A stretch of DNA of 64,000 nucleotides from a bacterium (GTDB lineage Bacteria > UBA8248), in the NCBI GenBank assembly GCA_965199855.1, contig OZ241326.1, positions 2,211,908 to 2,275,907 of the forward strand, in the 5' to 3' direction. Of the stretch, positions 515-50,988 are shown piece after piece (position 1 is the first letter of the stretch; every line of letters starts with the position of its first letter). A model generated the notes under the pieces. The model had not been told where the DNA came from. It ran no database searches and worked only from the letters and a program-made list of their open reading frames with translations. The position numbers and the translations under genes were made by a program.

Positions 515-4133
<3,619 letters not shown>

Positions 4134-4259
4134 TCGATATTTCGATTGGGTTGTTGTTCTTTGATACGCCGCTATAATCGGATCGAGCCGATCCTCCAGC
4201 TCGCTTCGGCTGACCAGAAACGCCTTGTTTTCATCGCAGGACCGGCGAAGATTGAAGCC

Positions 4260-7573: not shown

Positions 7574-8475
7574 GCGGCGGAATCCTGATCTACCGCATGG
7601 GGGCGTTCGGGGACACGCTCCTGCTCGCGCCGCTGCTCGGACGCCTGCGGGAGGCGCGCCCGGGCGTTCGCCTCACCCTGGCGGCGAACCCCGCATACGC
7701 CGCTCCCCTGCTCGACGCGGGGCTGGCGGAGGAGATTCTGGACGGGGGCGCGCCTCCCTTTCATCTTCTCTATGACGGGCGGCCATCGGAGAACGACGCG
7801 CTCGCCCGGCTCATCCGGCGGCATGACGCCTGCGTCTTCTACACCGCCGACCGCTCGGGAGAGCTGGCGAGGCGGCTGCGTTCATCGAGGCCGGAGAAAT
7901 GCCGCGTCCACCCCCCTTTCCCGCCGGAGGGGGAGAGCGTTCACGTCTGCGCGTGGATGACGCGGGCGTGGCCCGGCCTGAGCGCGTCCGCGCCTGAAAG
8001 CATGAAGCTGACGCCTTCGGAAAACAGCCTGTCTGAGGCGGACAACCTATTGAAAAAAAATGGCTTGCGACCTTCCCGCTTCTTCATCCTCCATCCCGGC
8101 GGAGGGGGCGAGAGAAAATGGCCGCCGCCCGACGTTCTCGCGGAGATGGGCCGCGCCCTCGCGCGCGAAACGGGGCATCAGCCGGTCGTGGCGGAAGGGC
8201 CGGCGGATTCGATCGCCAGCGAGAATTTCCAGAAGCTCCCGGGCGCGCCCCTGCCGGTCCTCAGGGAAACGCCGCCCGTCATCCTGGGCGCCCTGCTCTC
8301 GAGGTCGTCCGGGTATATCGGGGGCGATTCCGGCGTCTCCCATCTCGCCTCTCTCTACGCGCCGCGCGCCTCGATACTGTATGGCCCCCATTCCGACATG
8401 AGGGTCTGGCGACCGATAGGCTCCCGAACGCGCTGCCTGTCCTGGGAGGCGGAGCGGAGGAGCGCGTTCGGGTGA
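7570..8475 (+). CDS. glycosyltransferase family 9 (heptosyltransferase-like)
   Basis: 301 aa. The TTG start overlaps the rsmA stop (TTGA). N-terminus ILIYRMGAFGDTLLLAPLL and ILHPGGGGERKWP resemble the GT9 ADP-heptose transferase pattern. Confidence 0.75.
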   Translation: MSGGILIYRMGAFGDTLLLAPLLGRLREARPGVRLTLAANPAYAAPLLDAGLAEEILDGGAPPFHLLYDGRPSENDALARLIRRHDACVFYTADRSGELARRLRSSRPEKCRVHPPFPPEGESVHVCAWMTRAWPGLSASAPESMKLTPSENSLSEADNLLKKNGLRPSRFFILHPGGGGERKWPPPDVLAEMGRALARETGHQPVVAEGPADSIASENFQKLPGAPLPVLRETPPVILGALLSRSSGYIGGDSGVSHLASLYAPRASILYGPHSDMRVWRPIGSRTRCLSWEAERRSAFG

Positions 8476-8558
8476 CGGCGCGATCGGCGCGCGTCGGGAG
8501 ATTTCCCGTCCCGCGGCGTTCATTCCGGCGGGGAGAGACTGCCGCGGCGCGGCGGGCC

Positions 8559-9269
8559 TCAGCCGAGGATGTTCGCCAGCCTGCCCCAGCGCGGCGAGCC
8601 CGAATCCCCGTTCCATGACCAGTAGATCATGAAGGCGGAGCCCCGAATCTTGTCGTCCCAGCAGGGCGCGGACCACAGCGAGCAGGGAAAGGGCAGGCCG
8701 AAGGAGTAATCCCAAAAGCGTATGGGGATGTGATCCGCGCGCTCGCCCACCTTCAGAAAGCCCCAGAAGCGGCTGTCCTGGCTGTTGTTGCGGTTGTCGC
8801 CCAGCATGAAGAGGTGGCCCGGCGGGACCTTGCGGGGGCCCCATTCGCTCTCGAGGCTCCCGGCGGCGCCGTTGGGCTTGAAGCGCGCGTATTTCTCCTC
8901 CAGCGGCTCGCAGTTTCGGGGCGCGTCCGGCGTCGCGCAGTTGATGAAGACCCTTTTTCCGCGAACCATCACCACCTCGCCCGGCAGCGCGACCACCCGC
9001 TTGATGAAGTCCCGCCGCTCATCCTTGGGAAAGCGGAACACGATGATGTCCCCGCGCCTCGGCTTCCGCAGCCAGTAGATGAACTTGTTGACGAGTATGT
9101 GGTCTCCGACGAGGAGGGTGTTCTCCATGGAGCCGGAGGGTATCTTGAACGCCTGCACGACGAAGGCGCGCACGAACAGCGCCAGCAGCAGGGCGATGAC
9201 GATCGCCTCGGCGTATTCCCGAAAAACGGATTTCGACTTTCGCCCGCGCCCCGCCTTCTCGTCCGACAC
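8559..9269 (-). CDS. lepB: signal peptidase I
   Basis: 236 aa. Has a TM anchor, then the catalytic Ser box IPSGSMENTL, the Lys box RGDIIVFRFP...KRVVALPGE, and GDNRNNSQDSRFWGF. Confidence 0.93.
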   Translation of the reverse strand: MSDEKAGRGRKSKSVFREYAEAIVIALLLALFVRAFVVQAFKIPSGSMENTLLVGDHILVNKFIYWLRKPRRGDIIVFRFPKDERRDFIKRVVALPGEVVMVRGKRVFINCATPDAPRNCEPLEEKYARFKPNGAAGSLESEWGPRKVPPGHLFMLGDNRNNSQDSRFWGFLKVGERADHIPIRFWDYSFGLPFPCSLWSAPCWDDKIRGSAFMIYWSWNGDSGSPRWGRLANILG

Positions 9270-9273
9270 GCCC

Positions 9274-11076
9274 CTACTCCTTGCCCACGTCCAGAACCGC
9301 CATGAACGCCTCCTGGGGCACCTCGACGGTGCCGATGTTCTTCATGCGCTTCTTGCCCTCGCGCTGCTTTTCCAGCAACTTTCGCTTCCGCGTAATGTCG
9401 CCGCCGTAGCATTTCGCCGTAACGTCCTTCCGCAGCGCGCGAATCGTCTCCCGCGCGATCACCCGGTTGCCGACCGCCGCCTGAATGACCACCTCGAACA
9501 TCTGCTTCGGGATGATCTCCTTCATCTTCCGCACCAGCGCGCGGCCGTGATAATAGGCCTTCTCCTTGTGGATGATGGTGGAAAACGGGTCGATGGGCTG
9601 TCCGTTCAGCAGGACGTCCAGCTTCACCATCTCCGCCGGACGGTAGTCGAGGCGCTCGTAGTCGAAACTCGCGTATCCCCGGGAGGCGGACTTCAGCTTG
9701 TCGTAGAAATCGAAGAGTATCTCGCTGAAGGGCAGCTCATAGACGATCTGCACGGTATTCGTATCGATGTATTCCATGGAGCGCTGCGCGCCGCGCTTCT
9801 CCTGCGCCAGCCTGAGAACGCCGCCCACGTATTCGGCGGGCGCGAGGATGGTGCCCAGAATGAAGGGCTCCTCGATGGCCTCGATTCTCGACAGTTCGGG
9901 CAGCTTCGCGGGACTGTCGATTTCCGCGACCGTCGAATCGCTCAGCAGGACGCGGAAAATCACCGTCGGCGCCGTGATGATGAGCGTGAGGTCGTATTCG
10001 CGCTCGAGCCTCTCGCGGATGATCTCCATGTGCAGAAGCCCCAGGAACCCGCACCGGAAGCCGAACCCCAGAGCGACCGAGGTTTCCGGCTCGTAGGTGA
10101 AGGCCGAATCGTTGAGCCGGAGCTTCTCCAGCGCCGTCCTCAAGTCCTCATACTCGGCGCTGTCCGCCGCATACAGGCCGCTGTAGACCATCGCCTTCGG
10201 CTCCCGGAAGCCCTGAATGGCCTCGCGCGCGGGGTTTTTCGCCAGCGTGATGGTGTCGCCCACCCGGGTGTCGCTCACCTCCCGTATCGAAGCGGACAGG
10301 ATGCCCACCTCGCCCGGCCCGATTTCCTCTCTCCTGATCTCGCGGGGCGTGAACGCGCCCAGACTCAGCACCTGGTATTCCTTGCCGGTGGCCATGAAGC
10401 GGACGCCGTCGCCCTTGCGAATGGTTCCCTCGAACATGCGAAACAGCGGGATGGCGCCCTGGTAGGAATCATACCAGGAATCTATCACGAGCCCCCGCGG
10501 GGAGGCTTCCGGCTCTCCGCCCGGAGGCGGAATCCGCTCCACGATCGCCTCGAGGAGCGCGTCCACGCCCTCCCCCTGCTTCGCGCTCACCGTCAGGCAC
10601 TCCTCCGCGGCGATGCCGATGACGTCCTCCACCTGCCGCATCACGCGATCGGGGTCGGCCGCCGGCAGGTCGATCTTGTTGATCACCGGTATGATGACCA
10701 AGTCCTGCTCCAGCGCCAGATAGGCGTTCGCCATCGTCTGCGCCTGGATGCCCTGGGTGGCGTCAACGAGCAGCAGGGCGCCCTCGCAGGCCTGGAGGCT
10801 TCGGGAAACCTCGTAGCTGAAGTCCACGTGGCCGGGCGTATCGATGAGGTTGAAGACGTATTCCCCGCCCTTCGGCGACCTGTAGAGGATGCGGACCGTG
10901 GCCGCCTTGATGGTGATGCCCCGCTCCTGCTCCAGCGCCATCGAATCCAGCACCTGGGAGGACATCTCGCGCTCTGAAAGCGCTCCCGTCGTTTCGAGAA
11001 TGCGATCCGCCAGGGTGGATTTTCCATGGTCGATATGCGCGATGATGGAAAAGTTTCTGATTCTCTCGATGCTCAC
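9274..11076 (-). CDS. lepA: translation elongation factor 4
   Basis: 600 aa. Contains [22 protein letters not shown] (G1), DTPGHVDF (G3) and the LepA-specific C-terminus. Immediately upstream of lepB, the conserved lepA-lepB order. Confidence 0.96.
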
Positions 11077-37081: not shown

Positions 37082-37951
37082 TCAGGGAAGGATGGAGAGA
37101 ATCGCGGGCGTCACGTCGCGGATGCTGGGGTTCGCCGCGTCCGCGAGCAGGACGTCGGCGTGTTTGCCGTAGAGCAGTATCGGGACGGGGTTTTTCGTGT
37201 GGGAGGAGGTCGAGGCGTCCTCCACGTTTCCGTGATCGCTGCTCAGGACGAACGTATCCTCCCCCGCGTCGAGCCGCCGCAGCGCGGCGCGCAAAAACCC
37301 GTTCAAATCCCTTAAAACCTCGAAGGCGTCGTCCGCGCCTCCGCGGTGGCCGACGTGGTCGGTGTGAAAAAACTCGTAGATCAGCAAATCCCTTCTCTTC
37401 GCCAGTTTTCCGAGGCGATCGCCCGCCTCCGCGGCGTCGAGCCCCGCCACCTCGTGGCCCTGCTCCGCCGCGATCCCGTTCGTGTAGTCCCGATAGACGG
37501 CCTCTCCCCGCGCGAGATCCTCCAGGCGGTTCAGGGGGATTCCCGCGCTTTCGGCCATCACCGTGGTCACGGAGCGTCTGCGGGCGCGCCCGCGCGCGAA
37601 GAAAGGGGGCGTATAGGCGTTGGCGAACCCGACGAGCGCGCCCCGCTCCCGCGCGCGCCTGAGCAGGCCGCTTCGGCAGACGAGGCGGCGCAGGCGCTCG
37701 TTCGGCAGCCCCTGGCGGTGGCCGCCCTCCAGTTCGGGCGCGTTCGCGCCCGTGAACAGCGCGGCGCCTCCCGTCGCGCTCTGGGGAACGCCCCCGACGC
37801 CGAGGCGGGCGTCCGCCTCGATGAGCCTGAAGCCGGGCGCCCGCCCGCCGCGCAAAAGCGCCAGCGGCGGCTCCTCCAGCCCCGAGAGGGGATTGTCCGG
37901 CCCCGGCGGGGCGACGCCCAGGCCGTCCACGAACACGAAAAGAACGGCCAT
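37082..37951 (-). CDS. alkaline-phosphatase-superfamily metalloenzyme (iPGM/phosphopentomutase-like)
   Basis: 289 aa. Contains MAVLFVFVDGLG (metal-ligand Asp), FFHTDHVGH and SSDHGN. Confidence 0.6.
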   Translation of the reverse strand: MAVLFVFVDGLGVAPPGPDNPLSGLEEPPLALLRGGRAPGFRLIEADARLGVGGVPQSATGGAALFTGANAPELEGGHRQGLPNERLRRLVCRSGLLRRARERGALVGFANAYTPPFFARGRARRRSVTTVMAESAGIPLNRLEDLARGEAVYRDYTNGIAAEQGHEVAGLDAAEAGDRLGKLAKRRDLLIYEFFHTDHVGHRGGADDAFEVLRDLNGFLRAALRRLDAGEDTFVLSSDHGNVEDASTSSHTKNPVPILLYGKHADVLLADAANPSIRDVTPAILSILP

Positions 37952-37952
37952 G

Positions 37953-38972
37953 CTAGAGCGTTCGTCCGACGGCCTCTGCGAACGCCCGCAGCTCCCCGAG
38001 CAGGGCGGCGAACCGCTCGGGCTTGAGCGACTGCGGCCCGTCGCTCATCGCCTTTTCGGGCTCGGGGTGGAGTTCGAGCATCAGGCCGTCCGCCCCGACG
38101 GCCACGGCCGCCTTCGCCAGGGGCGCGACGAACCGCCAGGCACCCGCCGCGTGGCTCGGGTCCACCACCACCGGCAGGTGCGTCTGCTCCTTGAGCACCG
38201 GCACGGCGCTGATGTCCAGCGTGTTGCGCGTGGCCGTCTCGAAGGTTCGTATCCCCCGCTCGCACAGCACCACGTTCGGGTTTCCCTGGCTCATGACGTA
38301 TTCCGCCGACATCAGGAACTCCTCGATCGTCGTGGACATGCCGCGCTTGAGGAAGATGGTCTTGTTCGTCCGGCCGACCTTCTTCAGCAGGGAGAAGTTC
38401 TGCACGTTGCGCGCGCCGATCTGCAGGACGTCCGCGTAGGCGCAGCACGCCGCGATGTCCTCGGAGTCCATCACCTCCGTCTGGACGGGAAGCCCCGTCC
38501 TCTCGCGCGCCTCCGCGAGGAGCCTGAGGCCCTCCTCCGCCATGCCCTGGAAGCTGTAGGGCGAGGTGCGCGGCTTGTAGGCGCCGCCCCGCAGCACGTG
38601 GCCGCCGCCCGCCTTCACGGCCTCGGCGGACTTCAGTATCTGCTCCCGGTTCTCCACCGAGCACGGCCCGCCGATGACGACGATGCGCTCGCCGCCGATT
38701 TCCACCCCCTCGCCCATCGGCAGACGGCTGGGCTCGGACCTGCCCTCCGCGCTCGCCAGCTTGAAGGGCTTGAGAATGGGCGTCACGCTCTCCACGCCGT
38801 TCAGCGAGACGAGCGACTCCAGCATGTATTTTCCGCGCTCGTCCCCGATGGCGCCGATCACCGTGCGCTCCACCCCTTCCATGACGTGTTCCTTGTAGCC
38901 GAGTTCGTTGATGCTCCTGATGGCGTTTTTCACCTCATCCTTCGTCGCGCCGCGCTTCATCACGATAATCAA
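37953..38972 (-). CDS. aroF: 3-deoxy-7-phosphoheptulonate (DAHP) synthase, type I-beta with N-terminal regulatory domain
   Basis: End of ORF 37953..39305. TTG 38972 is preceded by GGAAGGAGG and gives (M)[17 protein letters not shown], the ACT/ferredoxin-like N-terminus seen in Thermotoga-type enzymes. The catalytic part contains [26 protein letters not shown] and [10 protein letters not shown] 38960 is an alternative start. Confidence 0.9.
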
Positions 38973-39195
38973 GCCGAACCTCCTTCCATCCGCGCGGAAC
39001 CCGCGCGCGTCTCCCCAAAAAAATCGCCGCGAGGCCGGAAGCCCACGGCGAACGTTCCTGCTCAGCGTCCGGTGGCGGGCGGCTCGTCCGCCCCCCGCCG
39101 CTCGGGTCTTACGAAACGGCGGGCGGACGGACGGTGATAAAGCCGAAAAAGAAGCGCCCGCCAATCGCCCGCATCGCGTCCGTCTCCCGGAAATT

Positions 39196-40566
39196 TCATC
39201 TTTCGCCGAAAAACAAGGGCTTACGATAATCCCGAAGGGAGGGAGCGTCAACCCCCGACGGCGGCGATTCCCGGATGGGCGGCGAGGGGGGCGATCCCCG
39301 GTCATCGCCCCGCGCCCGAGGAGCCGCCGGAAAAGAGACGGGTTCGGGAGAAAAGCCGCCCGCCCGCGCGTGAAAAAACGGTCGGACGCGCGAACCCCCG
39401 CGCGCTATTTCCTCGTTCTTCCCGCTCCGGCGGCTCCGCCCCGCCCGGGGCGGCCGGACGAGCCTGCCGCCCAGAACCACGTGCGCGGCCTCGAGCATCC
39501 GGCTCCCCGCGCGCCGCGCCCCCATGCAGTCCTCGAAGGAGAACCTGCCCTCCTTCATCCGGAACACGGCGACGTCGCCCCGGGCGCCCTTCTTGAGCGT
39601 CCCCACCTCGTCTTTCAGGCCAATCCACTCCGCCGCCGTCTGCGCGCTGAGCCGCACCACCTCGGAGAGGGGAAAGCCGAGCGCCAGAAACTTGCTCATC
39701 AGGGTCGGAAAGTCATACACCGGCCCATGAAGGCAGTGGGCATGGAGGTCGGTGCTCAGGTTGCCCGGCATGAGGCCCTGGGCCATGGCCCTCTCCAGAA
39801 TCTCGAAGCTGAAGCTCGAGCGCCCGTGGGCTACGTCGAGCAGGACGCCCGCATCCCGCGCCTCCCACACCGCGCGGCGCACCCGGCCCCGCCTGTCCAG
39901 AATGTTCTCGCGCCGGCCGTGAAACGCATGGGTGAGCACGTCGCCCGGGCGGAGTTTCCTGAGAATTCTCGAGAGGGGGACGGGCGTATCCCCCACGTGC
40001 GCCATGAGCGGAACCTTGAGGAACTCCGCCGCCTCGAGCGCCGCGTCCAGGGGCCTGGCGCCGCTGCCCTCCACCACGTTGCGGCTCAGGCGCACCTTCA
40101 TGCCGATGAGATGCTCGCGGTTCCTCTCGTAGCACTCCACCGCCCTGTCCACCCGAAGCGCGCGCATGTCGACGTTCTCGCCCAGGCCGTCGATGAGAAG
40201 CCCGCCCTCGGAGATGTTCAGATAGGCGCGAACCGTCGGCCGCGCCTTCTCCAGGAACCATTTCCGGAAGGCCGGATAGGTCTGCGCGCCGGCGCTGCCC
40301 GTGTCCACCGCCGTCGTCACCCCGCGCGCGAGCATCGCCGCCTCCAGGCTCACGCCGTAGTGGGTCACGCCCTCGTAGAAGTGGCAGTGGAGATCGACCA
40401 GGCCCGGTGTGACGATTTTCCCCGCGGCGTTCAGGGCGCGCCTCCCCGCGGGATCGATGCGGGGCGCCACCCTCCGCACGCGGCCGCCGGCGATTTCCAC
40501 GTCCATCGTCCCCTCCAGCCCCTGGGAGGGATCGATGACGTAGCCGCCGCGTATGACGATGTCCAT
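39196..40566 (-). CDS. amidohydrolase-superfamily metallohydrolase (deacetylase/dihydroorotase-like)
   Basis: ATG 40566 gives [16 protein letters not shown]...[10 protein letters not shown] (HxH). The roughly 70-aa basic, Pro-rich tail down to the stop at 39196 looks non-homologous. Confidence 0.75.
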
Positions 40567-40666
40567 CCCCGAAGCTCCCCGGAGAAGCGAGGCGCGCGCC
40601 GGAATCCCCGGCGAGGCCCGGCGCAATCCCGAATCGCCGGGACGCGGCGCCGCTCCGCCGGGCGCG

Positions 40667-40696
40667 TTGACACGCAATCGCCGCAGGGTGGATCAT
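40667..40696 (+). promoter_or_regulatory. candidate sigma70-type promoter of the acd-acd-selenoprotein operon
   Basis: TTGACA (40667-40672), an 18-nt spacer, then GATCAT (40691-40696), about 50 nt upstream of ATG 40749. Pattern match only. Confidence 0.35.
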
Positions 40697-40748
40697 GGCG
40701 GGCGTCGAGCGCAACCATCATCCCAAACCAGCCTGCGGGAGCCGCGAG

Positions 40749-41921
40749 ATGAGCCTGCAAACCGAAGCCGCGCTTCAGTTCGACCTGGACGACACGCAAA
40801 AGATGCTTCGCCGGACGGTGCGGGAGCTCTCCGAGCGCCACATCGCCCCGCGCGCCGCCGAAATCGACGAGAACGAGGAATACCCCGAAGACATCTATCA
40901 GATGCAGAAGGAGCACGGCCTCCTCGGCATCTTCTTCCCCGAGGAATACGGCGGCGGCGGAATGGGCTTTCTGGGCGGCTGCGTCGCCATCGAGGAGATC
41001 GCGCGCTTCTGCTCGAACTCCCCGCTCTTCATCGTGCTCAACATGCTCTCGAGCCGCGTCATCGACCTGAGCGGCACGCCGGAGCAGAAGACGCATTATA
41101 TGACGGGCCTCGCCAGGGGCGAACTTCGGGGCTCCTACGCCCTCACGGAGCCCCACGCGGGCTCCGACGCCGGGAACATCCGCACGCGCGCCGTCCGGGA
41201 GGGCGAGGAGTGGGTCATCAACGGGACGAAATGCTTCTGCACGGGACCCGACAAGGCGGACTTCATCACCGTCGCCGCCAAGACCGACCCCGGCGCGGGC
41301 GCGCGGGGCATCACCTACTACGTCGTCCCCACGGACGCGCCCGGCTTCAGCATCGACAAGCACGAGCGCAAGATGGGGATGCGCGGCATCTCGACCTGCA
41401 TGCTGCGCTTCGACAGCGTGGCCGTGCCCCTCGAGAACCAGATCGGCGAGCTGAACCAGGGCTTCAGAACCGCGATGATCGGCTTCAACCAGATGCGGCC
41501 CGCCATCGGCGCGCGCGCGGTCGGCCTCGCCCAGGGGTGCCTCGACTACGCCGCGGGCTACGCGAAGGAGCGCGAGGCCTTCGGGAAGCCCATCGCCCGC
41601 CACCAGGCCGTCCAGTTCATGCTCGCCGACATGTTCATGGACATCGAGGCGTCGCGCCTGCTCGTCTATCGCGCCGCCTCGATGGTGGACGCCGGACAAA
41701 TCGGCAAGGAGAACGCCCGGTATTTCTCGACGGCCAAGACCTACGCGGCCGACATGGCGATGAAGTGCGCGATAGACGGCATCCAGGTGCTGGGCGGGGC
41801 GGGCTACATGAAGGATCACCCGCTCGAGCGCTTCATGCGCGACGCCAAGCAGATCCAGATCGTCGAGGGGACGAGCCAGATTCAGCGGATCATCATCGCC
41901 CGCAACCTGCTCGACCTCTAG
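40749..41921 (+). CDS. acyl-CoA dehydrogenase
   Basis: I prefer ATG 40749. Contains YALTEPHAGSDAG and GGAGYMKDHPLERFMRDAKQIQIVEGTSQIQR (catalytic Glu region). Confidence 0.92.
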   Translation: MSLQTEAALQFDLDDTQKMLRRTVRELSERHIAPRAAEIDENEEYPEDIYQMQKEHGLLGIFFPEEYGGGGMGFLGGCVAIEEIARFCSNSPLFIVLNMLSSRVIDLSGTPEQKTHYMTGLARGELRGSYALTEPHAGSDAGNIRTRAVREGEEWVINGTKCFCTGPDKADFITVAAKTDPGAGARGITYYVVPTDAPGFSIDKHERKMGMRGISTCMLRFDSVAVPLENQIGELNQGFRTAMIGFNQMRPAIGARAVGLAQGCLDYAAGYAKEREAFGKPIARHQAVQFMLADMFMDIEASRLLVYRAASMVDAGQIGKENARYFSTAKTYAADMAMKCAIDGIQVLGGAGYMKDHPLERFMRDAKQIQIVEGTSQIQRIIIARNLLDL

Positions 41922-41933
41922 GAGCGCGCGGAG

Positions 41934-43103
41934 GTGGGGCCGGGGGCGGAGCCGCCCGCCGCGTTCGGGCTGAGCCGGGCGCAGCGAGCGCTGGGAGAGA
42001 GGGTCTATGCGCTGAGCCGCCGCCGCGTCGCGCCCCGCGCCGCCGACATCGACGAAAGCGGGGAATACCCCGAGGATATTTTCCAGCTCCTGAAGTCCCG
42101 CGGCCTCCTCGGCCTCTACGTCCCCGAAGAATACGGCGGGGCGGGCCTCGGCGTCCTGGAGACGTGCGTCGCCATCGAGCAGATGGCGCGCTTCTGCTCG
42201 AACTCTCCCCTTTTCTTCTCCGTCCACCTGCTCGCCACCCGCGCCGTCGCCATAGGCGGAACCGGGGCGCAGAAGAGCGTCTGGCTCCGCGGCGTAGCCC
42301 GGGGCGAGCTGCGCCCCGCCTTCTCGCTCACCGAGCCGCACGCGGGCTCCGACGCCGCGAACATATCGGCGCGCGCGGCGCGGGAGGGGGACTCGTGGGT
42401 CATCAACGGCCAGAAGTGCTACTGCACCGGCGCGAGCGTCGCCGACTTCCTCACCGTGGCGGCGAAGACCGAGGCCGGGGCGGGGGCGCGCGGCGTCTCC
42501 TTCTTCATCGTTCCCAAGGGCGAATTCCGGGTGGGCCGCCGCGAGAGGAAGATGGGGATGCGGGGAATCCCCACCTGCGAGGTGTTTTTGGAGAACGCCC
42601 ACGTCCCCCTCGAAAACATCATCGGCGATCGGGCGACGGGCTTCAGAACCGCCATGCTCGGCTTCAACCAGGCGCGGCCCGCCATCGGCGCGCGCGCGGT
42701 CGGCCTCGCCCAGGGGTGCCTCGACCACGCCGCGGGCTACGCCAAGGAGCGCGAGGCCTTCGGGAAGCCCATCGCCCGCCATCAGGCCGTCCAGTTCATG
42801 CTCGCCGACATGTTCATGGACGTCGAGGCGTCGCGCCTGCTCGTTTACCGCGCCGCCTCGATGGTGGATAATGGGCGCTATCAAAAGGAGGACGCGCATT
42901 TCATCTGCGCCGCGAAGTGCTTCGCGTCCGACGCGGCCATGAAGGCGGCCGTGGACGCGGTTCAGACCCTGGGCGGGGCGGGCTATACGAGGGATCACCC
43001 GCTCGAGCGGTTTATGAGAGACGCCAAGCAGCTGCAAATCATCGAGGGGACGAACCAGATTCAGCGCATGGCGATCGCCCGGAATCTGCTGGGCCTGAAC
43101 TGA
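41934..43103 (+). CDS. acyl-CoA dehydrogenase (tandem paralog)
   Basis: 389 aa with a GTG start. Contains FSLTEPHAGSDAA and GGAGYTRDHPLERFMRDAKQLQIIEGTNQIQR. Long stretches are identical to the upstream paralog (REAFGKPIARHQAVQFMLADMFMD). Confidence 0.92.
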   Translation: MGPGAEPPAAFGLSRAQRALGERVYALSRRRVAPRAADIDESGEYPEDIFQLLKSRGLLGLYVPEEYGGAGLGVLETCVAIEQMARFCSNSPLFFSVHLLATRAVAIGGTGAQKSVWLRGVARGELRPAFSLTEPHAGSDAANISARAAREGDSWVINGQKCYCTGASVADFLTVAAKTEAGAGARGVSFFIVPKGEFRVGRRERKMGMRGIPTCEVFLENAHVPLENIIGDRATGFRTAMLGFNQARPAIGARAVGLAQGCLDHAAGYAKEREAFGKPIARHQAVQFMLADMFMDVEASRLLVYRAASMVDNGRYQKEDAHFICAAKCFASDAAMKAAVDAVQTLGGAGYTRDHPLERFMRDAKQLQIIEGTNQIQRMAIARNLLGLN

Positions 43104-43133: not shown

Positions 43134-43754
43134 ATGAGCCGGACCATTGAAATTCTCACGCCCACCTCGTTCGTCCGCGCGGGCGATCATCCCCTGGCGG
43201 CGCGGCCGGGAGAGCTCGGCGGACTCAGAATCGGCTTTTTCCACAACAACAAGCCGAACGCCGACGCCCTCCTGGAGCGCATCGAGGAGCTCCTCGCGCG
43301 GGAGGACGAAACCCTCCGCTTCGTCCGCTGGGGAAAGCCGAACCCGACGCTGCCGGAGGCGCGCCTCGGCGAGTTCATCAAGCAGGTGGACGCGGCCGTC
43401 TGCGCGGTGGGCGACTGAGGCAGCTGCACGTCGTGGAGTATCCACGACGCGGTGGAGATGGAGAAAGCGGGGATTCCGACGGCCACGTTCTGCTCCAGCG
43501 AATTCTCCGCCCTGGGCGCGAACGAGCGGGTCGCCCTGGGGATGCCGGGCCTTCCGATAGTCGTCGTGCCGCACCCCGTGGGGGGGATTCCGCCCGAACG
43601 GGCGCGCGCCCTGGGGGACGCGGCGCTGGACGAGGTTCGGCGCGTCCTCACGGAGGACGCGGAATCGCTGCGAAGGGAATACCGCGAGCGCGCCTACGCC
43701 CCGCCCCGCCGGACGGTGCGCCACAAGGCGCTTTTCGCCCGGGGGTCGGCGTGA
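43134..43754 (+). CDS. UGSC-type selenoprotein (in-frame UGA = Sec at codon 95)
   Basis: Track ORFs 43134..43418 and 43452..43754 share one frame. They are separated only by TGA (43416-43418) and 11 sense codons. The joined reading is ...QVDAAVCAVGD-U-GSCTSWSIHDAVEMEKAGIPTATFCSSEF... The U-x-x-C motif and the SECIS-like hairpin directly downstream support Sec decoding. Confidence 0.8.
43416..43449 (+). other. UGA codon plus bacterial SECIS-like hairpin
   Basis: UGA at 43416-43418. Ten nt later there is a perfect 8-bp stem CGUCGUGG / CCACGACG (43429-43436 / 43442-43449) with apical loop AGUAU (G at the second loop position). The loop is centred about 21 nt after the UGA. Confidence 0.7.
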
Positions 43755-43800: not shown

Positions 43801-44892
43801 ATGAGCGATCCCTCCTCCGAAGCGCCTCCAGAAGCGGCGTCCCTCCCGAGCGAGCGGGTGAAGGTTCGGGACGCGCCCGAGGCGCTCGCGCGTCTCCTCG
43901 AGGCGAGGGGATGGGGCGACGGCCTGCCCGTCGTTCCCCCCACGCCCGGGCGCGTCGCCCGCATGGTGGAGGGGGCGGGGCTGGCCGCTGGGGAGGAAAT
44001 CGGCCGGATGCCGCCCCGCCAGGGAGTCGTCACGGTCGAGGCGCTCGCCGTCAACGCCGTGATGGCCGGATGCCTCCCGGCCTACATGCCCGTTCTCGTG
44101 GCGGCGGCGCGGGGGGCGCTCCAGCCGGAATTCTCGCTCCACGCGCTCCAGGCGACGACCCACCCGGTGGCGCCCCTGATCATCGTGAACGGCCCCGTCG
44201 CCGCGAGAATCGACATGAACGCGGCGTATGGATGCTTCGCCCCCGGAAACCGGGCGAACGCGACGATTGGCCGCGCGATGCGCCTGACGCTCCTGAACGT
44301 AGGCGGGGCGAGCCCGGGCGTTCTGGATCGCGCCACCCAGGGCTCGCCCGCGAAATACGCATTCTGCATCGCCGAGAACGAGGAGGAATCCCCCTGGGAG
44401 CCGCTGCACGTCGAGCGCGGCTTCGCGCCCGGGGAGAGCGCCGTCACGGTCGTGGGCTGCGAGGGGCCCCACAACGTCAACGATCACGTGAGCCACGCGG
44501 CGGAGGGCATTCTCGCCGCCGCCGCCGACACGATGTCCGTCATGGGCGGCAACAACTTCTATCTGAGGGGCGAGCCGCTCCTCGCGCTCGGCCCCGAGCA
44601 CGCGGCGACGATAGCGGGGGACGGGCTGTCGAAGGCGGACGTGAAGCGAAGGATTTTCGAGCTCGCCCGAAAGCCCGCGCGCCAGCTCCGGCGCGGCGCC
44701 ATGTGGGGGATGCAGACCTGGGGGGAGGAGATAGCGAGAAACGAGGGAGATGACGACTACGAGATTCCGCTTCTGGATCGGCCCGAAGACCTCATCGTCA
44801 TCGTGGCGGGCGGCGCCGGCAAGCACTCCTCCTACCTGCCGACGTTCGGCCCCACGCGCTCGGTGACCACCCGGGTCGATTCGCCGGCCTGA
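43801..44892 (+). CDS. conserved hypothetical protein (363 aa), operon partner of the selenoprotein
   Basis: Clean 363-aa ORF 46 nt after the selenoprotein stop. Codon usage is like its neighbours. Distinctive segments are RGWGDGLPVVPPTPGRV, AVNAVMAGCLPAYMP, YGCFAPGNRANATIGRA and VVGCEGPHNVNDH. I recognise no family. Confidence 0.7.
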   Translation: MSDPSSEAPPEAASLPSERVKVRDAPEALARLLEARGWGDGLPVVPPTPGRVARMVEGAGLAAGEEIGRMPPRQGVVTVEALAVNAVMAGCLPAYMPVLVAAARGALQPEFSLHALQATTHPVAPLIIVNGPVAARIDMNAAYGCFAPGNRANATIGRAMRLTLLNVGGASPGVLDRATQGSPAKYAFCIAENEEESPWEPLHVERGFAPGESAVTVVGCEGPHNVNDHVSHAAEGILAAAADTMSVMGGNNFYLRGEPLLALGPEHAATIAGDGLSKADVKRRIFELARKPARQLRRGAMWGMQTWGEEIARNEGDDDYEIPLLDRPEDLIVIVAGGAGKHSSYLPTFGPTRSVTTRVDSPA

Positions 44893-45069: not shown

Positions 45070-45471
45070 ATGCCGAAGCAGCAGATCGACTCGGAGAAGG
45101 TGAGGCCGGTGGCCGCGTATTCCACGGGCTGGAAGGTGTCGAACGGGCATCTCGTCATGCTGGCGGGCCAGGTGGCGACCGACACGGAGGGCCGCACCGT
45201 CGGCGGAGACGACATCAAGGCCCAGGCGCGGCAGGTCTATGAGAACGTCAAGGCCGCGCTCGAGGCCGCCGGCGCCGGAATGGAGGACGTCATCCGCCTC
45301 ACCGTCTATCTCACGGATCGGGCGAATTTTCCGGGAAGCGCGGAGGTGCGGCAAGCCTACTTCAGCCCGCCCTATCCGGCGAGCACGCTCCTCATCGTGA
45401 GCGGACTGGCGAACCCGGAATGGCTCATCGAAATCGACGCCGTCGCCTTCGTGGAGGACGGGACGCCGTGA
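45070..45471 (+). CDS. RidA-family (YjgF/UK114) protein
   Basis: 133 aa. Contains LVMLAGQVA, AQARQVYENVKAALEAAGAGMEDVIRLTVYL and IEIDAVA. Confidence 0.88.
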   Translation: MPKQQIDSEKVRPVAAYSTGWKVSNGHLVMLAGQVATDTEGRTVGGDDIKAQARQVYENVKAALEAAGAGMEDVIRLTVYLTDRANFPGSAEVRQAYFSPPYPASTLLIVSGLANPEWLIEIDAVAFVEDGTP

Positions 45472-46325
45472 GAGGCGGCAGGGCGGTTTCCGAGACGCTC
45501 GTTCTCGTGAAGGGGGGCGGCGACCTCGCCACCGGCGCGGCGCACCGCCTGCGCCGCTCGGGCTTTCCCGTGATGATGACGGAAATCGAGCGTCCGACCA
45601 TGGTCCGCCGCGCCGTCTCCTTCGCCGAATGCCTCTACGCCGGCGAATGGCGGGTGGAGGGCGTGGCTTCCGCGAGGGCGGAGGGCGGCTCCCTGGAGGA
45701 GAAAATCGCCGGCGCGCGCGCGCTGATGGAGGCGGGCGCCGTTCCCGTGATGGTCGATCCGCGCGCCGAGGCGGTCGCCCGCGTCCGGCCCGCCGTCGTG
45801 ATCGACGCGATTCTCGCCAAGCGAAACCTCGGCACCCGCATCGAGGACGCCGAGGTGGTCATCGGCCTGGGGCCCGGCTTCACGGCGGGGGTCGATTGCC
45901 ACGCCGTCATCGAGACCGCCCGGGGGCACGACCTGGGGCGGGTGATACTCGAAGGGGCGGCGAAGCCGGACACGGGCGCGCCGGGCGCCATCGCGGGCTA
46001 CGCCGCCGAGCGGCTGCTGCGCGCCCCGCGCGCCGGCGCGTTCGCCTCCGCCGCCCGCATCGGGGACGCGGTGCGGGCGGGACAGGCCGTCGCCCGGGTG
46101 GACGGGGAGGAGGTGACGGCCCGCATCGACGGCGTCCTGCGCGGCCTGCTCAGGGACGGCATCGAGGTGAGCGCGGGCTTCAAGGTGGGCGACGTCGACC
46201 CCAGGGCCGAGCCTTCCCACTGCGTGACGATATCGGACAAGTCGCGCGCCGTCGGCGGCGGCGCGCTCGAGGCCGTCATGATGTTCCTGTTCGGCGTCTC
46301 CCCGGCCGCGGAGCGCGCGAATTGA
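45468..46325 (+). CDS. yqeB: YqeB/EF2563-family selenium-dependent molybdenum hydroxylase system protein
   Basis: In-frame part of ORF 45420..46325. GTG 45468 overlaps the ridA stop (GTGA). LVLVKGGGDLATGAAHRLRRSGFPVMMTEIERPTMVRRAVSFAE...VIDAILAKRNLGT...GLGPGFTAGVDCHAVIETARGHDLGRVI...IDGVLRGLLRDG...VTISDKSRAVGGGALEA matches my memory of the YqeB/EF2563 family closely. Confidence 0.8.
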   Translation: MRGGRAVSETLVLVKGGGDLATGAAHRLRRSGFPVMMTEIERPTMVRRAVSFAECLYAGEWRVEGVASARAEGGSLEEKIAGARALMEAGAVPVMVDPRAEAVARVRPAVVIDAILAKRNLGTRIEDAEVVIGLGPGFTAGVDCHAVIETARGHDLGRVILEGAAKPDTGAPGAIAGYAAERLLRAPRAGAFASAARIGDAVRAGQAVARVDGEEVTARIDGVLRGLLRDGIEVSAGFKVGDVDPRAEPSHCVTISDKSRAVGGGALEAVMMFLFGVSPAAERAN

Positions 46326-47206
46326 GTCCCGACATTCTGGCGGAAACGGTGGAAAGCGGCGCCTACCGCATCGGGCGCAGCGAAATCCCGATCAACCAGG
46401 CGAACGGCAACGCCTTCGTCCCCCCCGCGCAGTTCTATCTGGCGGCGGGCGACGCGCTCGAGCGCATCGCGTGGGCGGTGAGCCAGAACCTCCCCGTCCT
46501 GCTCGTCGGAGAGACCGGCGTCGGCAAGACGCTCTCGGTGCGCTACCTCGCCCACATGACGAACAACGGCTTCAGGCGCGTGAACCTCAACGGCATGACC
46601 ACGGTCGATGAATTCGTGGGCAAGCTGATGATCAACGAGCAGGGCACCTACTGGGTGAACGGCATCCTGATCGACGCGATGCAGTCGGGAGACTGGCTGC
46701 TCATCGACGAGATCAACGCCTGCCTGCCCGAAATCGCCTTCTGCCTCCACAGCCTGCTCGACGACGACCGCATGATCGTCCTCTCGGAGTATGACGGCCG
46801 CGTCGTCAAGCCCCATCCGGACTTCAGGCTCTTCGCCAGCATGAACCCCCACGAGGACAGGAGATACGGCGGCACGAAGCCCCTGAACGAGGCGCTTCTG
46901 GATCGCTTCCCCGTCACCGTGAGGATGGACTACCTGCCCTTCGAGGCGGAGGTCGAGGTCATCATGCGGCAGAGCGGGAACGGCGACGAGGAGCTCGTCC
47001 GGCGCATGGTGCGCGTGGGCCACGACGCGCGCGAGGCCATGAGGAACGAAAAGGTGTTCTGCACCTTCAGCACCCGGCGCCTGATTGACTGGGCGCGCAT
47101 GGCGGCGCGGTTCGACCCCATGGAGGCCGCCGTCTCGACCATCTTCAGCAAGGTCAACTCGTTCGACGCCAAGGTGCTCGAGGACATCGTGGACAACCAC
47201 TTCTAG
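46322..47206 (+). CDS. CobS-like AAA+ ATPase (AAA_5 / MoxR-type)
   Basis: In-frame end of ORF 45629..47206. TTG 46322 overlaps the yqeB stop (TTGA). Walker A LLVGETGVGKT, Walker B DWLLIDEINA, then FRLFASMNP...LNEALLDRFPV. 294 aa. Confidence 0.8.
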   Translation: MSPDILAETVESGAYRIGRSEIPINQANGNAFVPPAQFYLAAGDALERIAWAVSQNLPVLLVGETGVGKTLSVRYLAHMTNNGFRRVNLNGMTTVDEFVGKLMINEQGTYWVNGILIDAMQSGDWLLIDEINACLPEIAFCLHSLLDDDRMIVLSEYDGRVVKPHPDFRLFASMNPHEDRRYGGTKPLNEALLDRFPVTVRMDYLPFEAEVEVIMRQSGNGDEELVRRMVRVGHDAREAMRNEKVFCTFSTRRLIDWARMAARFDPMEAAVSTIFSKVNSFDAKVLEDIVDNHF

Positions 47207-47221
47207 CCGGGAGACGCAGGC

Positions 47222-48991
47222 ATGGAGCGCCGACGCGCCCGCCTCGAGACCCTCGCGCAGGTGACGGCGCGCGACTACGGCCTCGCCCTGCTGTTCGGCT
47301 CCCGGACGGAGACCGGGGACGACGCCGTCCTCGTCGAGGACCCGGAGCGGACCCTGGCGCGCCTGGGCGGCGGCCTCGACGACGAGCGCGTCCTGCGATA
47401 CCAGAAGGGCATGACGCTCATCGAGGTGGCCCGCAGGCTCCAGGGGACGCTTCGCTGGGCGGGCCGCGCGGCCCTCGCCAACCGGGAGACGCCGGGCCTT
47501 TTCCACCTCTGGCGCGCCCTCGAGGACGCCAGATGCGAGAACCGCCTCGCCGAGTCGCTGCCCGGCACGAGAAAGAATTTCCGCGCCTTCGTCCGTCCCG
47601 CGATCGAGGACGCCGAGCGAAGCCACGCGCGGGGGGAGCTCCCCCTGCTTCTCCAGATTCAATGGGGCATCTACCTCGCCGGCGTCGGCCAGACGCCCGG
47701 CGCCGCCTCCTCAAGGCCCGGGGATTTGCCCTCGGCCTGGTTCGATTCCGTCATCGCCCAGATTCTTCAGAGGCTCGTCCCGATCATCGACCGCGCCTGC
47801 GCGGCCAAAGAGCCGAAGACCGCCTTCGACTGCGCGAACGAAATCTACGACGCCGTGCGGCGCTTCCTCACCGAGGAGCAGCTCGCGCAGATGCGCGAGA
47901 GCGAGGAGCTCTCGGAGCTTCCGGATGAAATTCTGGAGAAAATCGAGAACCAGAAACTCCAGGGGGAGGAGTCCGAGTCGCCGGAGGCGCTCCACCCGGA
48001 GGCGCTCGACGAGGTGGACGCGGACGAGGGCGAGCAGGTCGAGCTCACGCCCGAGGAGCTCGCCGCCCTGGGCCGCTGGGCGTCTCCCTGGTTCGAGATG
48101 GAGGGCGGCGGGAAGGAAGTCCACCCGACGGCGGAGCATCCCGACGAGCGCACCATCGTCCTGCCCCCGGAGGGCAAGGCGGAGGAATACGCGGCGATCA
48201 TGGACGGCGCGGGCAGCCACATCAAGGTGCTGGCGTGGAAGCTCACGCAGATCATTCAGGAGAGAGCCTACGCCCGCTTCAGCGGCTCGCACCGCTCCGG
48301 CAAGCTGAACGTCCCGAAGCTCTGGAAGCAGCGCCTGGGCAAATTTCATCTTTTTCACCGCAAGGAGGAGCCCGAGAAGCTCGACGTCTGCTTCACCCTC
48401 CTCGTGGACGAGAGCGGCAGCATGAACCGCGAATCGAAATACGTAGCCGCCAGGGAGGCGACCGTGTTCTTCGCGGAAGTCCTCGACCGGCTGGACGTGC
48501 CCTTCGAGGTGATCGGCTACTCCACCGAGAGCTCGGAGGCGGCCATGGCGGCCGCGCTCGGCCACATCCCCGCCTTCAAGTTCAGGCACATCCGGCACTC
48601 CCCCCTTCAGCACCGCATCTACAAGGGCTTCGAGGACGCCTTCCCCCAGGTCAAGAACCGTCTCGTCAACATTTATCCGCGCTTCAACAACTGGGACGAG
48701 GAGCATCTGCTGTTCGCCTACCGAAGGCTCAGCCAGCGGCCCGAGGAGGAGAAGATCATCATCATCACCTCGGACGGCCAGCCCAACGGCGACGCGGCCC
48801 ACCTCGTGAGCGCGGTCGGCCGCCTCCAGGCGCTCGGCGTGCGGATCATCGGCGTCGGCGTGGTGGACCCCTTCGTCGAGCAGATCTACCCGAACCACAT
48901 CGTGGTGCAGGACCTCTCCCAGCTCTCCACGGAGCTGGTGAACATTCTGCGGCGCGAGCTGCTCGGGGGGGCGGAGGGCCGCCCTTGGTAG
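47222..48991 (+). CDS. CobT-like protein with C-terminal von Willebrand factor A domain
   Basis: 589 aa. Helical N-terminal part, acidic linker, then a VWA domain with MIDAS motif LLVDESGSM...IIITSDGQPNG. Begins 15 nt after the AAA+ gene. Confidence 0.8.
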   Translation: MERRRARLETLAQVTARDYGLALLFGSRTETGDDAVLVEDPERTLARLGGGLDDERVLRYQKGMTLIEVARRLQGTLRWAGRAALANRETPGLFHLWRALEDARCENRLAESLPGTRKNFRAFVRPAIEDAERSHARGELPLLLQIQWGIYLAGVGQTPGAASSRPGDLPSAWFDSVIAQILQRLVPIIDRACAAKEPKTAFDCANEIYDAVRRFLTEEQLAQMRESEELSELPDEILEKIENQKLQGEESESPEALHPEALDEVDADEGEQVELTPEELAALGRWASPWFEMEGGGKEVHPTAEHPDERTIVLPPEGKAEEYAAIMDGAGSHIKVLAWKLTQIIQERAYARFSGSHRSGKLNVPKLWKQRLGKFHLFHRKEEPEKLDVCFTLLVDESGSMNRESKYVAAREATVFFAEVLDRLDVPFEVIGYSTESSEAAMAAALGHIPAFKFRHIRHSPLQHRIYKGFEDAFPQVKNRLVNIYPRFNNWDEEHLLFAYRRLSQRPEEEKIIIITSDGQPNGDAAHLVSAVGRLQALGVRIIGVGVVDPFVEQIYPNHIVVQDLSQLSTELVNILRRELLGGAEGRPW

Positions 48992-49011
48992 CGGAAGGCG
49001 GCCTCGCGCGG

Positions 49012-49812
49012 ATGATCGGCGCCCGAGCGGGGCGGATCGTCGCGGCGGTCGGGGCGGGGGGGAAAACGAGCCTGCTCACGGCGCTCGCCCGGGAGTTTCA
49101 CGCCCGAAGCGGCGCGCCCGCCCTCCTCACGACGACCACCAGAATTTTCGCGCCCCTGCCGGAGGAGGGGATTCCCCTCGCCCTGGGCGACGCCGCCGCC
49201 CTCTCGAGGAGGCTGCGCCCCTACATGAGAGCCTGCGGCGTCTCCTGGCTCGCCCGCGGACGCGAGGGCCGCGCGCCGGTTCCGGGCCGGGAGGGCGAGC
49301 GCCGCATGAAGCTGCGCGGCTTCGCGCCCTCCGAAATCGAGGGATTGCGTCTCGCGGAGGGCCTCACCCTCATCGAGGCGGACGGGGCGAGGCGCCTGCC
49401 CGTCAAGGCGCCCGGCGCGCGGGAGCCCGTCCTGCCCGAAGGCGTGGACGCCGTGCTGGGCGTCGTGGGGCTGGACGCCCTGGGCGCGCCCCTGGACGAG
49501 GCCCATGCGTTCCGCCCGGAGCTGCTCTCGCGGATATGCCGCCTGGACGCCGGCGCGGAGATCACGGCGGAGGCGATCGGGGCGCTGTGCGCGCACCCCG
49601 AGGGGCTGTTTCGCAAGGCGGACGGCGGCGCGCGCAGGTGGATCGTCCTCAACAAGGCCGATTTGGAAGCCTCGCTGGAAAAACGAAGAAAGATCGCCTA
49701 TACTATCCGGGAAATGGCGGGAAAGCCCCATGGGCCGGCGGACGGGGTTCTCCTGACCTCCTGCCTGAAGAACAGGCCGGAAGTTTTGCTGCGAATCGGG
49801 CCGGACGCCTGA
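49012..49812 (+). CDS. yqeC: YqeC-family selenium-dependent hydroxylase accessory protein
   Basis: In-frame end of ORF 48235..49812, starting at ATG 49012 (alternative TTG 48985). VAAVGAGGKTSLLTALA (P-loop), LLTTTTRIFAP, LIEADGARRLPVKAPGAREPVLP and HPEGLFRK...WIVLNKADL match the YqeC pattern I remember. Confidence 0.8.
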   Translation: MIGARAGRIVAAVGAGGKTSLLTALAREFHARSGAPALLTTTTRIFAPLPEEGIPLALGDAAALSRRLRPYMRACGVSWLARGREGRAPVPGREGERRMKLRGFAPSEIEGLRLAEGLTLIEADGARRLPVKAPGAREPVLPEGVDAVLGVVGLDALGAPLDEAHAFRPELLSRICRLDAGAEITAEAIGALCAHPEGLFRKADGGARRWIVLNKADLEASLEKRRKIAYTIREMAGKPHGPADGVLLTSCLKNRPEVLLRIGPDA

Positions 49813-49842
49813 GAGGAGGCGGCCCGCCTGCGCGGAGGAGAG

Positions 49843-50988
49843 ATGAGCGAGGACGTTTTCAGGGAAATGGCGAGGATGAAGGAGAAGGGGCAGGCGGGCG
49901 CGCTCGCCACCGTCGTGGCCCGCAAGGGCTCCGCGCCCATGAGCGGCGACGCGAAGATGCTCGTGCGCGAGGACGGCAGCGCCGAGGGCACCGTCGGGGG
50001 CGGCTGCCTGGAGGCCGAGGTCTGGGAGACCGCGATGAGCGTCCTCGAAACGGGCGCGCCCGAGAAGCTCTCCTTCGACCTCACCCAGAAGGAGGCGGAG
50101 GACAGCGGCCACATCTGCGGCGGCGTGGTGGAGATACTGGTGGAGCCGCTCCGGGCGTTTCCCCGGGAGCTGCTCGATGAGATCAACCGCGTGAAAAACC
50201 GGGGCGGAAGTGCCGCGCTGGCGACCATCGTCCAGCCGGGGGCGCTCGACATCCCGAAGCCCGAGGCCGGGAAAATGCTCTTCAGGCGCGACGGCAGCTC
50301 CGTGGGGGAAATTCCGCGCTATTCGGCGGAAGTCTGGGCGGAGAGCGCGCAGGTGATTCGCCAGGGCAGCCCCACCCTCCTGCACTTCAGCCAGGGCGCC
50401 GCGCGCGGCGGAGGAAAGAAGCCCGCGCCCGGCGAGGCGACCGAAATTTTCGTGGAGCCCATCTCCGGCCAGCCGCTCGTCTATATCTTCGGCGGCGGGC
50501 ACGTATCCTTCTGCGTCGCGCAGGCGGCCTGGCTCGCCGGCTTCCGGGTCGCCATCGTGGAGGACAGACCCTCCTTCGCCAACAAGGAGCGCTTCCCGAT
50601 GGCCGAGGCGTTCCACGTGGGCGATTTCCCGGAAGTTTTCAGGGAAATTCCGGTGGACGAGGCGGACTACCTGGCCATCATCACCCGGGGCCACGCGAAC
50701 GACGAGGTCGTCCTCGAATGGGCGATGAAGACGAAGGCGCGCTACATCGGGATGATCGGCTCGAAGAGCAAGGTGCTGCTCACCTACCGCCATCTTCAGG
50801 AGAAGGGCTTCGCGCGGAGCGAGCTCATCGAGCGCGTCCACGCGCCCATCGGCCTGGACATCGGCGCCGACACGCCGGGCGAGATCGGAATCGCCATCGC
50901 CGCCGAGTTCGTCCGCCATCGCCGCCGGGGCGAGGCGGAAAGCGAGGGCGCGGGCAGCAAGCGGGTGCGCCTGGGAAGAAAGGCGTAA
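49843..50988 (+). CDS. XdhC/CoxI-family molybdenum-cofactor insertion chaperone
   Basis: 381 aa. N-terminal XdhC_CoxI segment ALATVVARKGSAPMSGDAKMLV...GTVGGGCLEAEV. C-terminal Rossmann part LVYIFGGGHVSFCVAQAA...IITRGHANDEVVLEWAM...YIGMIGSKSK. Confidence 0.88.
   Translation: MSEDVFREMARMKEKGQAGALATVVARKGSAPMSGDAKMLVREDGSAEGTVGGGCLEAEVWETAMSVLETGAPEKLSFDLTQKEAEDSGHICGGVVEILVEPLRAFPRELLDEINRVKNRGGSAALATIVQPGALDIPKPEAGKMLFRRDGSSVGEIPRYSAEVWAESAQVIRQGSPTLLHFSQGAARGGGKKPAPGEATEIFVEPISGQPLVYIFGGGHVSFCVAQAAWLAGFRVAIVEDRPSFANKERFPMAEAFHVGDFPEVFREIPVDEADYLAIITRGHANDEVVLEWAMKTKARYIGMIGSKSKVLLTYRHLQEKGFARSELIERVHAPIGLDIGADTPGEIGIAIAAEFVRHRRRGEAESEGAGSKRVRLGRKA

Follow-up and report, generated by a model that had tools for sequence, protein, structure and literature searches.

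The gene analyzed here, designated X, occupies positions 43801-44892 of a 64,000-nucleotide stretch of DNA (the window; assembly GCA_965199855.1, contig OZ241326.1, positions 2,211,908 to 2,275,907) from a bacterium of the UBA8248 lineage. Its 363-residue product belongs to a large protein family whose members are nearly always encoded beside, or fused to, selenoproteins of the UGSC family. X/UGSC pairs are in several cases linked to thioredoxin reductase (TrxR), and the selenocysteine (Sec) segment of UGSC aligns with, and is probably homologous to, that of GrdB/PrdB-like proteins. We consider it probable (ca. 0.6) that X and UGSC, as separate subunits or as domains of the same polypeptide, make up a single selenoenzyme that would follow the logic of GrdB and PrdB with an unrelated partner. 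X is proposed to be the substrate-binding or catalytic subunit of this two-part, TrxR-fed enzyme.

A sequence-only reading of the window had placed X last in a same-strand string of four genes, two acyl-CoA dehydrogenases (ACADs), a UGSC selenoprotein and X, separated by 12, 30, and 46 nt, and had suggested that X could be a partner of the selenoprotein. The gene string and the 363-residue open reading frame (ORF) were confirmed, as were the identities of the three upstream genes, by Pfam and NCBIfam matches. The partnership was evaluated in 80 loci from different species, taken with 10-kb flanks from the best matches to the query's subfamily. A UGSC gene was present beside X on the same strand in 76 loci, within 1.5 kb in 75 of them and at a distance of ~5 kb in one (L075). 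UGSC was mostly located immediately upstream of X, as in the window, and sometimes downstream. In the four loci without UGSC, the contig ends within 175 nt of the start (5′ end) of the X match; a same-strand UGSC gene is thus present in every locus that is not cut by a contig end. Counted per gene copy, UGSC lies within 400 nt of 84 of the 105 X copies, and 83 of the 90 UGSC copies are accompanied by an X. Unpaired copies are mostly accounted for by contig ends, by a single intervening DUF6282 gene (L015, L020, and L046), or by X-X-X arrays. The association could also be recovered when the search was begun from UGSC: the next gene was an X homologue both in Microbacterium neimengense (39% identity) and in a metagenome contig (52% identity). 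The co-occurrence on which the partner idea had been staked is, therefore, conserved across genomes, and the idea is strongly supported.

Gene fusions extend the association to distant members of the family. Among 150 X representatives with mutual identity below 50%, UGSC is fused to X in 55 (51 in the UGSC-X order and four in the X-UGSC order). In 35 of the 51 UGSC-X fusions the annotated protein starts just past the Sec codon, since gene callers stop at TGA. At the DNA level, no stop codon separates the post-Sec part of UGSC from X in 18 of 64 loci. The same set of representatives contains five X-X fusions and a single fusion of X to TrxR. In adjacent UGSC/X pairs from other species, Sec (TGA) is present in 79 of 84 cases and Cys in the remaining five, which argues that Sec is needed for catalysis.

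The gene upstream of X in the window is, as judged by its sequence, a genuine UGSC selenoprotein gene: the halves on both sides of the in-frame TGA each match PF24696 and NF041046, and once they are joined the PF24696 score is 161.8 bits. A hairpin located shortly downstream of the TGA codon has a minimum free energy of −18 kcal/mol and a z-score of just −1.7 relative to shuffled sequences in this GC-rich context; we take its position and shape to be consistent with a bacterial selenocysteine insertion sequence (SECIS). From the UGSC gene to the end of X, nothing resembling a terminator was found. Similarly, X itself is, by its conservation, a real gene and not a chance ORF of a GC-rich genome, because its homologues, found with E values from 1e-237 to 1e-120 in many phyla, show 64% mean column identity (36 sequences).

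[quoted passage not shown] In the literature, including reviews up to 2026, UGSC is assumed to have a thioredoxin-like fold and has no function assigned. A different picture emerged from structure modeling: the UGSC model is flavodoxin- or Rossmann-like, with Sec at the N-terminus of a helix, and lacks the beta-alpha-beta-alpha-beta-beta-alpha topology with a redox motif at the first helix that characterizes thioredoxins. Because the surroundings of Sec resembled those in GrdB/PrdB, a profile of 30 UGSC proteins was compared by hhalign with 17 selenoprotein sequences labeled “proline reductase” or “GrdB” in Dataset S1 of the GOS selenoproteome study (PMC2398784). The two profiles aligned over 90 columns with a probability of 80% (P 1.4e-5, score 42.1), whereas the controls, one reversed and 20 column-shuffled, stayed at or below 16.9. 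In the alignment, Sec falls on Sec and Cys on Cys, and both families share an E..G-I-P-T segment; UGSC thus has the U-x-x-C motif, the conserved helix, and the E..G-I-x-T strand of GrdB/PrdB. When the 30 UGSC proteins were scanned with hmmscan against the Pfam GRDB model (PF07355), no hit was obtained at E values up to 10. The model stops just short of Sec and leaves the Sec segment of GrdB/PrdB unmodeled, which is why domain scans miss the likeness; it is seen solely in profile-profile comparison with sequences that cover the Sec region. UGSC, at ~200 residues, also lacks the GRDB N-terminal domain of ~340 residues.

A connection to TrxR was observed in several arrangements. In protein P0154, X is followed, within one polypeptide, by a TrxR of the genuine low-molecular-weight type whose active site is CAVC. 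A TrxR-like domain with a CAGC motif (~8460-9900) occurs in Blastococcus sp. CT_GayMR19 (L031) in frame, through the TGA codon, with a Sec-type UGSC, and X (10001-10966) and an MFS transporter gene follow; the domain scores 181 bits with TIGR01292, under the model cut-off of 343. The genes of L046 are arranged in the order TrxR-like, UGSC, DUF6282, X; Pfam confirmed the first and third of these. An identical order was deduced from tblastn and clustering for L015, where the TrxR-like gene is represented by its C-terminal end alone, and the order in L060 is UGSC, X, TrxR-like. The fusions and shared gene strings suggest that electrons pass from NAD(P)H via FAD and the CxxC pair of the flavoprotein to the UxxC pair of UGSC. 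They indirectly support the view that X/UGSC may be a reductase.

At 90% identity, X homologues fall into at least 8000 clusters, every one of which is unnamed or annotated as “hypothetical”. Clustering at 50% identity leaves 7569 representatives with E values up to 1e-3; for 2287 of these the E value is no higher than 1e-30. The homology is full-length (~340 residues, 90-100% of the length), and the motifs GWxDGLPxxPPT, AGCxP, NATIGRA, and AENE..PW, all present in the window protein, are shared by the family. Bacterial hosts include Acidimicrobiia, Chloroflexota, Binatia, Rokubacteria/Methylomirabilota, Proteobacteria, Acidobacteriota, and Actinomycetota (Blastococcus and Mycobacterium gordonae); archaeal hosts include Natrialba, Methanobacterium, and Nitrosocosmicus. 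The closest named relative among the matches listed is a protein from a Nitrospinota metagenome-assembled genome (MAG), at 70% identity. Profile and structure comparisons did not provide a family name. Nothing in Pfam, NCBIfam, or PDB was matched, whether the query was the single sequence, 36 homologues, or a profile (in Pfam, none at E values up to 1 for X and up to 5 for any of the 36 homologues), and no solved structural homologue of the AlphaFold2 model was found.

Conservation was counted across 145 diverse family members. Residues D40, G41, P43, A83, A89, G90, P93, G131, N153, G157, R158, A159, G181, E192, P198, W199, G207, and G337 are kept in at least 95% of them; G90 is invariant (100%), and D40 (98%), G41 (99%), and P43 (97%) mark GWxDGLPxxPPT as the family signature. 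The window protein has Ala at position 147, where 98% of members have Gly. Several cysteine contexts had been singled out as conserved-looking in the sequence-only reading. The motifs are indeed present, and this holds for C91 (MAGC, 94%) and C189 (FCIAENE, 87%), but not for C145 (~32%) or C220 (~7%). An obligate C91-C189 disulfide was considered and rejected, as both positions vary independently. A metal site formed by invariant histidines was likewise rejected: H121 is kept in 41% and H224 in 47% of diverse members (H267 in 86%). The AlphaFold2 model is confident, compact, and globular (mean predicted local distance difference test score, pLDDT, 87.5; predicted template modeling score, pTM, 0.88), and with its strongly conserved polar residues the modeled protein looks like an enzyme.

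Paralogue expansion of X is strong in some hosts. A single groundwater Chloroflexi MAG (L040, L070, L078, and L080) contains at least four loci with multiple copies, UGSC-X pairs are repeated three times in tandem in L080, and L075 carries an X-X-X array (3081-6202); some arrayed X copies are without a UGSC of their own. Proteins P0126, P0147, and P0150 are X-X fusions. The many paralogues suggest different substrates.

In the mechanism that we propose, X would carry the substrate pocket, lined by the near-universal polar residues D40, C91, N153, R158, and E192. Invariant R158 points to a carboxylate as the bound ligand and, possibly, as the substrate. UGSC would contribute the Sec of the U-x-x-C redox pair, which its flavodoxin-like domain would present at a helix N-terminus. 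The selenolate would attack either the substrate bound to X or an adduct on Cys91 of X, and the neighboring Cys of UGSC would resolve the intermediate, leaving a selenenylsulfide that would be re-reduced by NAD(P)H via a TrxR-type flavoprotein. Overall, a small polar substrate, probably a carboxylate, would undergo two-electron reduction or be cleaved reductively at one of its bonds. By analogy with T420-C421 of PrdA, G90-C91 of X could be a cysteinolysis (pyruvoyl-forming) site; it could, instead, simply provide a catalytic or Se-S-forming thiol.

The proposed arrangement resembles that of GrdB with GrdE and of PrdB with PrdA: a small Sec subunit with a U-x-x-C motif, alignable Sec to Sec, is encoded beside a larger partner that holds the substrate, a role that X is proposed to have. 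The thiol/selenol redox cycle, proposed here for X/UGSC, is in both cases fed by a pyridine-nucleotide disulfide reductase system. Glycine reductase receives electrons from thioredoxin and TrxR. In the proline reductase system the electron donor is PrdC, and Sec attacks the α-carbon of the substrate, after which an electron-transfer protein regenerates the enzyme (PMC11229817). Maturation of PrdA requires a dedicated protein, PrdH (PMC11229817). Unlike these systems, the UGSC/X pair is not accompanied by GrdA, GrdC/D, or PrdH genes, and its hosts are mostly aerobes of many phyla, plus archaea. The pyruvoyl group of PrdA has in X only a candidate counterpart at G90-C91, judged from the motif. 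TrxR-type flavoproteins fused to or lying beside UGSC/X, together with the U-x-x-C motif, are also reminiscent of thioredoxin/TrxR relays with Sec or Cys clients.

Several observations weigh against this interpretation. The homology of UGSC to GrdB/PrdB is just 80% probable and was established with partial environmental reads, of which three of the four tested pass as Pfam GRDB. Neither GrdE/PrdA (PF09338) nor the N-terminal domain of GRDB resembles X in Pfam or hhalign (P 0.37) comparisons, and the possibility that X is a diverged relative of either was rejected. The sample of 80 loci is biased to the subfamily of the query, and pairing of distant members is seen solely through fusions. TrxR links occur in just a handful of loci. 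C91 is absent from ~6% of the family, and a few copies without it, L044 among them, are still paired with Sec-containing UGSC, so that a mechanism resting on C91 alone calls for caution; nor can a fixed C91-C189 disulfide be assumed. Apart from UGSC, X has no constant neighbor, and the substrate is unreadable from the context. Finally, the physical complex, the direction of electron flow, the roles of individual residues, the substrate class, and any cofactor are what we infer from the comparisons above.

The main rival explanation, a real if minor possibility, leaves the components unchanged and reduces the role of UGSC to that of an electron carrier: UGSC would be a mere thioredoxin-like “selenoredoxin”, and X a self-contained 1-Cys thiol reductase, likened to methionine sulfoxide or arsenate reductases, with catalytic Cys91 recycled by the U-x-x-C pair. 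The likeness of U-x-x-C to the C-x-x-C of thioredoxin, the 94% conservation of C91, and the direct fusion of TrxR to UGSC in L031, as though UGSC were its substrate, all fit such a relay. However, the predicted fold of UGSC is not thioredoxin-like, its Sec segment resembles that of GrdB/PrdB, where Sec is the catalytic nucleophile, and retention of Sec in 94% of pairs would be unusual in a mere carrier. The X copies that lack C91 and are still paired with Sec-containing UGSC are also hard to reconcile with it. Strict pairing and fusion would equally be expected if X were a dedicated maturation, modification, or scaffolding factor for UGSC, much as PrdA depends on PrdH, or if UGSC were a redox regulator of X. 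We regard this as improbable, since one-to-one fusion with the client in a third of lineages is rare for such factors, and X is larger and more conserved than UGSC (mean column identity of 64% vs. 38%), contains many invariant polar residues, and forms X-X tandems and arrays, which suggest subunits of an oligomeric enzyme.

It is quite improbable that X is an ordinary, non-redox enzyme of acyl-CoA or organic acid metabolism (such as a hydratase, isomerase, or lyase) with no tie to UGSC beyond a common gene string. This explanation draws on the two ACAD genes that precede X in the window, on the recurrence of CoA-transferase III, enoyl-CoA hydratase, SDR, MmgE/PrpD, and AcnX genes near the pair, and on weak similarity of parts of the X model to class I fumarate hydratase and YjgF-like folds. 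The similarity to the alpha subunit of class I (Fe-S) fumarate hydratase and to YjgF/chorismate-mutase-like units (template modeling score 0.25 over ~140 residues) is below the level of homology, and X has one near-universal Cys in place of the three ligands of the 4Fe-4S cluster; X thus lacks both the fold match and the cysteines of an Fe-S hydro-lyase. Least probable is the notion, raised in the sequence-only reading, that the maturation system of a selenium-dependent molybdenum hydroxylase (YqeB, YqeC, and XdhC) encoded downstream has X as a client or participant. Proximity in the window, where YqeB and YqeC were confirmed at 45468-49809, is what speaks for it; just two close relatives, L001 and L002, share this adjacency, and X matches no molybdopterin-binding family.

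If X and UGSC do form one selenoenzyme, a further, distinctly speculative step can be considered: the pair may represent an unrecognized class of Sec-dependent reductases, widespread among aerobic bacteria and archaea, combining GrdB/PrdB-type Sec chemistry with a structurally new substrate subunit, possibly with a Cys-derived cofactor at G90-C91, and fed directly by TrxR-type flavoproteins. Paralogues of such an enzyme might reduce different small carboxylates, e.g. by reductively removing an α-substituent, before CoA-dependent catabolism. Were the reductase reading true, Stickland-type selenium chemistry would extend from strict anaerobes to common aerobic bacteria of soil and freshwater.

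The UGSC family, without a function, and a “UGSC/Unknown_1 fusion” were already known, the latter described by Zhang and Gladyshev in 2008 in a supplementary figure; that source presents Unknown_1 as a conserved domain with a conserved Cys that also occurs as a separate protein (PMC2398784). Unknown_1 is probably X. The pairing described here is near-universal and not an occasional fusion. This near-universal pairing, the size of the X family in the face of no curated model or structural relative, the TrxR fusions, and the non-thioredoxin fold of UGSC with its relation to GrdB/PrdB appear to be new. With a near-constant partner, frequent fusion, TrxR links, and a GrdB/PrdB-related Sec segment, orphan UGSC becomes part of a defined, testable system of two or three components. 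Cultured hosts are available for the Sec form with the TrxR fusion (Blastococcus sp. CT_GayMR19) and for Cys forms (Microbacterium neimengense, Mycobacterium gordonae, and Natrialba asiatica). X, with thousands of sequences and neither a Pfam model nor a solved relative, is a worthwhile target for structural and functional work.

Other neighbors of X were counted within 3 kb in the 80 loci. The most frequent were TctC/Bug binding proteins (17 loci), CoA-transferase III (10), SDR (nine), and ACAD (eight), followed by DUF6282 and MmgE/PrpD (six each), amidase (four), and enoyl-CoA hydratase (three); three more X contexts with precomputed Pfam labels differed from one another. The neighbors were too variable for the substrate to be deduced from gene context, and this approach was rejected. 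Genes of acyl-CoA and carboxylate catabolism (CoA-transferase, ACAD, and enoyl-CoA hydratase) recur loosely. X had been suspected to be a reductase acting on an acyl-CoA-derived substrate; the TrxR links favor the first half of this suggestion, and the second half is weak, as ACAD genes are present in only eight of the 80 loci and the ACAD-ACAD-UGSC-X order is found only in L001 and L002, two close relatives whose X proteins are 81-84% identical. The downstream set of RidA, YqeB, CobS/CobT-like, YqeC, and XdhC genes recurs near X in the same two loci only; XdhC-like genes were detected in three of the 80 loci, and YqeB or YqeC in two. RidA lies near X only in L001 and L002, with another 1.1-1.5 kb in between, and in L023, on the opposite strand. 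The ACAD and selenium/molybdenum maturation neighbors of X are, therefore, lineage-specific.

A DUF6282 gene (PF19799, ~290 residues) is present in at least six loci, between UGSC and X in L046 (5803-6681), L015, and L020, and after X in L013 and L087 (4208-5068). Its product may be a third component of some UGSC/X systems. In Microbacterium neimengense (L086, 5001-8625), a Cys-type UGSC is followed by X, an 82-residue ORF, and the genes for both subunits of aconitase X (AcnX), large and then small; the opposite strand upstream encodes an acyl-CoA ligase, an SDR, a MaoC dehydratase, and a zinc alcohol dehydrogenase. This context could be a lead to the substrate in a cultured host.

The features of the window locus are collected in the table. 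The first in-frame ATG of the first ACAD gene is at 40695, and the start given in the table was adopted from the equivalent position in the close relative L081 (390 residues). Searches of the window for additional X or UGSC copies, and for tRNA genes, found none.

Table. Gene string around X and its signals (positions refer to the window)
Feature	Positions	Strand	Details
Sigma-70-like promoter match	40667-40696	+	5′ of first ACAD gene; 10/12 consensus positions; a consensus match alone
ACAD 1	40749-41921	+	Pfam Acyl-CoA_dh N, M, and C domains; leads the local gene string
ACAD 2	41934-43103	+	Pfam/NCBIfam scan
UGSC selenoprotein gene	43134-43754	+	~206 residues, read through in-frame TGA; stop codon 43752-43754
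Sec-encoding UGA	43416-43418	+	in motif D-U-G-S-C (...VGD-U-GSC...)
SECIS-like hairpin	43429-43449	+	perfect 9-bp stem, GUA loop, 10 nt past UGA
Gene X	43801-44892	+	ATG start, 363 residues, fourth gene of the string; ORF list and translation
RidA/YjgF-family gene	45070-45471	+	enamine/imine deaminase family; PF01042, TIGR00004; 177 nt 3′ of X; outside the conserved pair
YqeB	within 45468-50985	+	TIGR03309, 348 bits (cut-off 220)
CobS-like AAA_5 ATPase	within 45468-50985	+	
CobT-like VWA protein	within 45468-50985	+	
YqeC	within 45468-50985	+	TIGR03172, 165 bits (cut-off 73)
XdhC-related aldehyde-oxidoreductase maturation factor	within 45468-50985	+	

The genes from YqeB to the XdhC-related factor make up what looks like the full set needed to mature a selenium-dependent molybdenum hydroxylase. 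On the other side of the string, two long plus-strand ORFs (37620-39137, 505 residues, and 38908-40752, 614 residues) have no Pfam match. They are probably shadows of a GC-rich minus-strand gene, since in the near-identical contig L081 the gene called just 5′ of the ACADs is an amidohydrolase-like one encoded on the minus strand.

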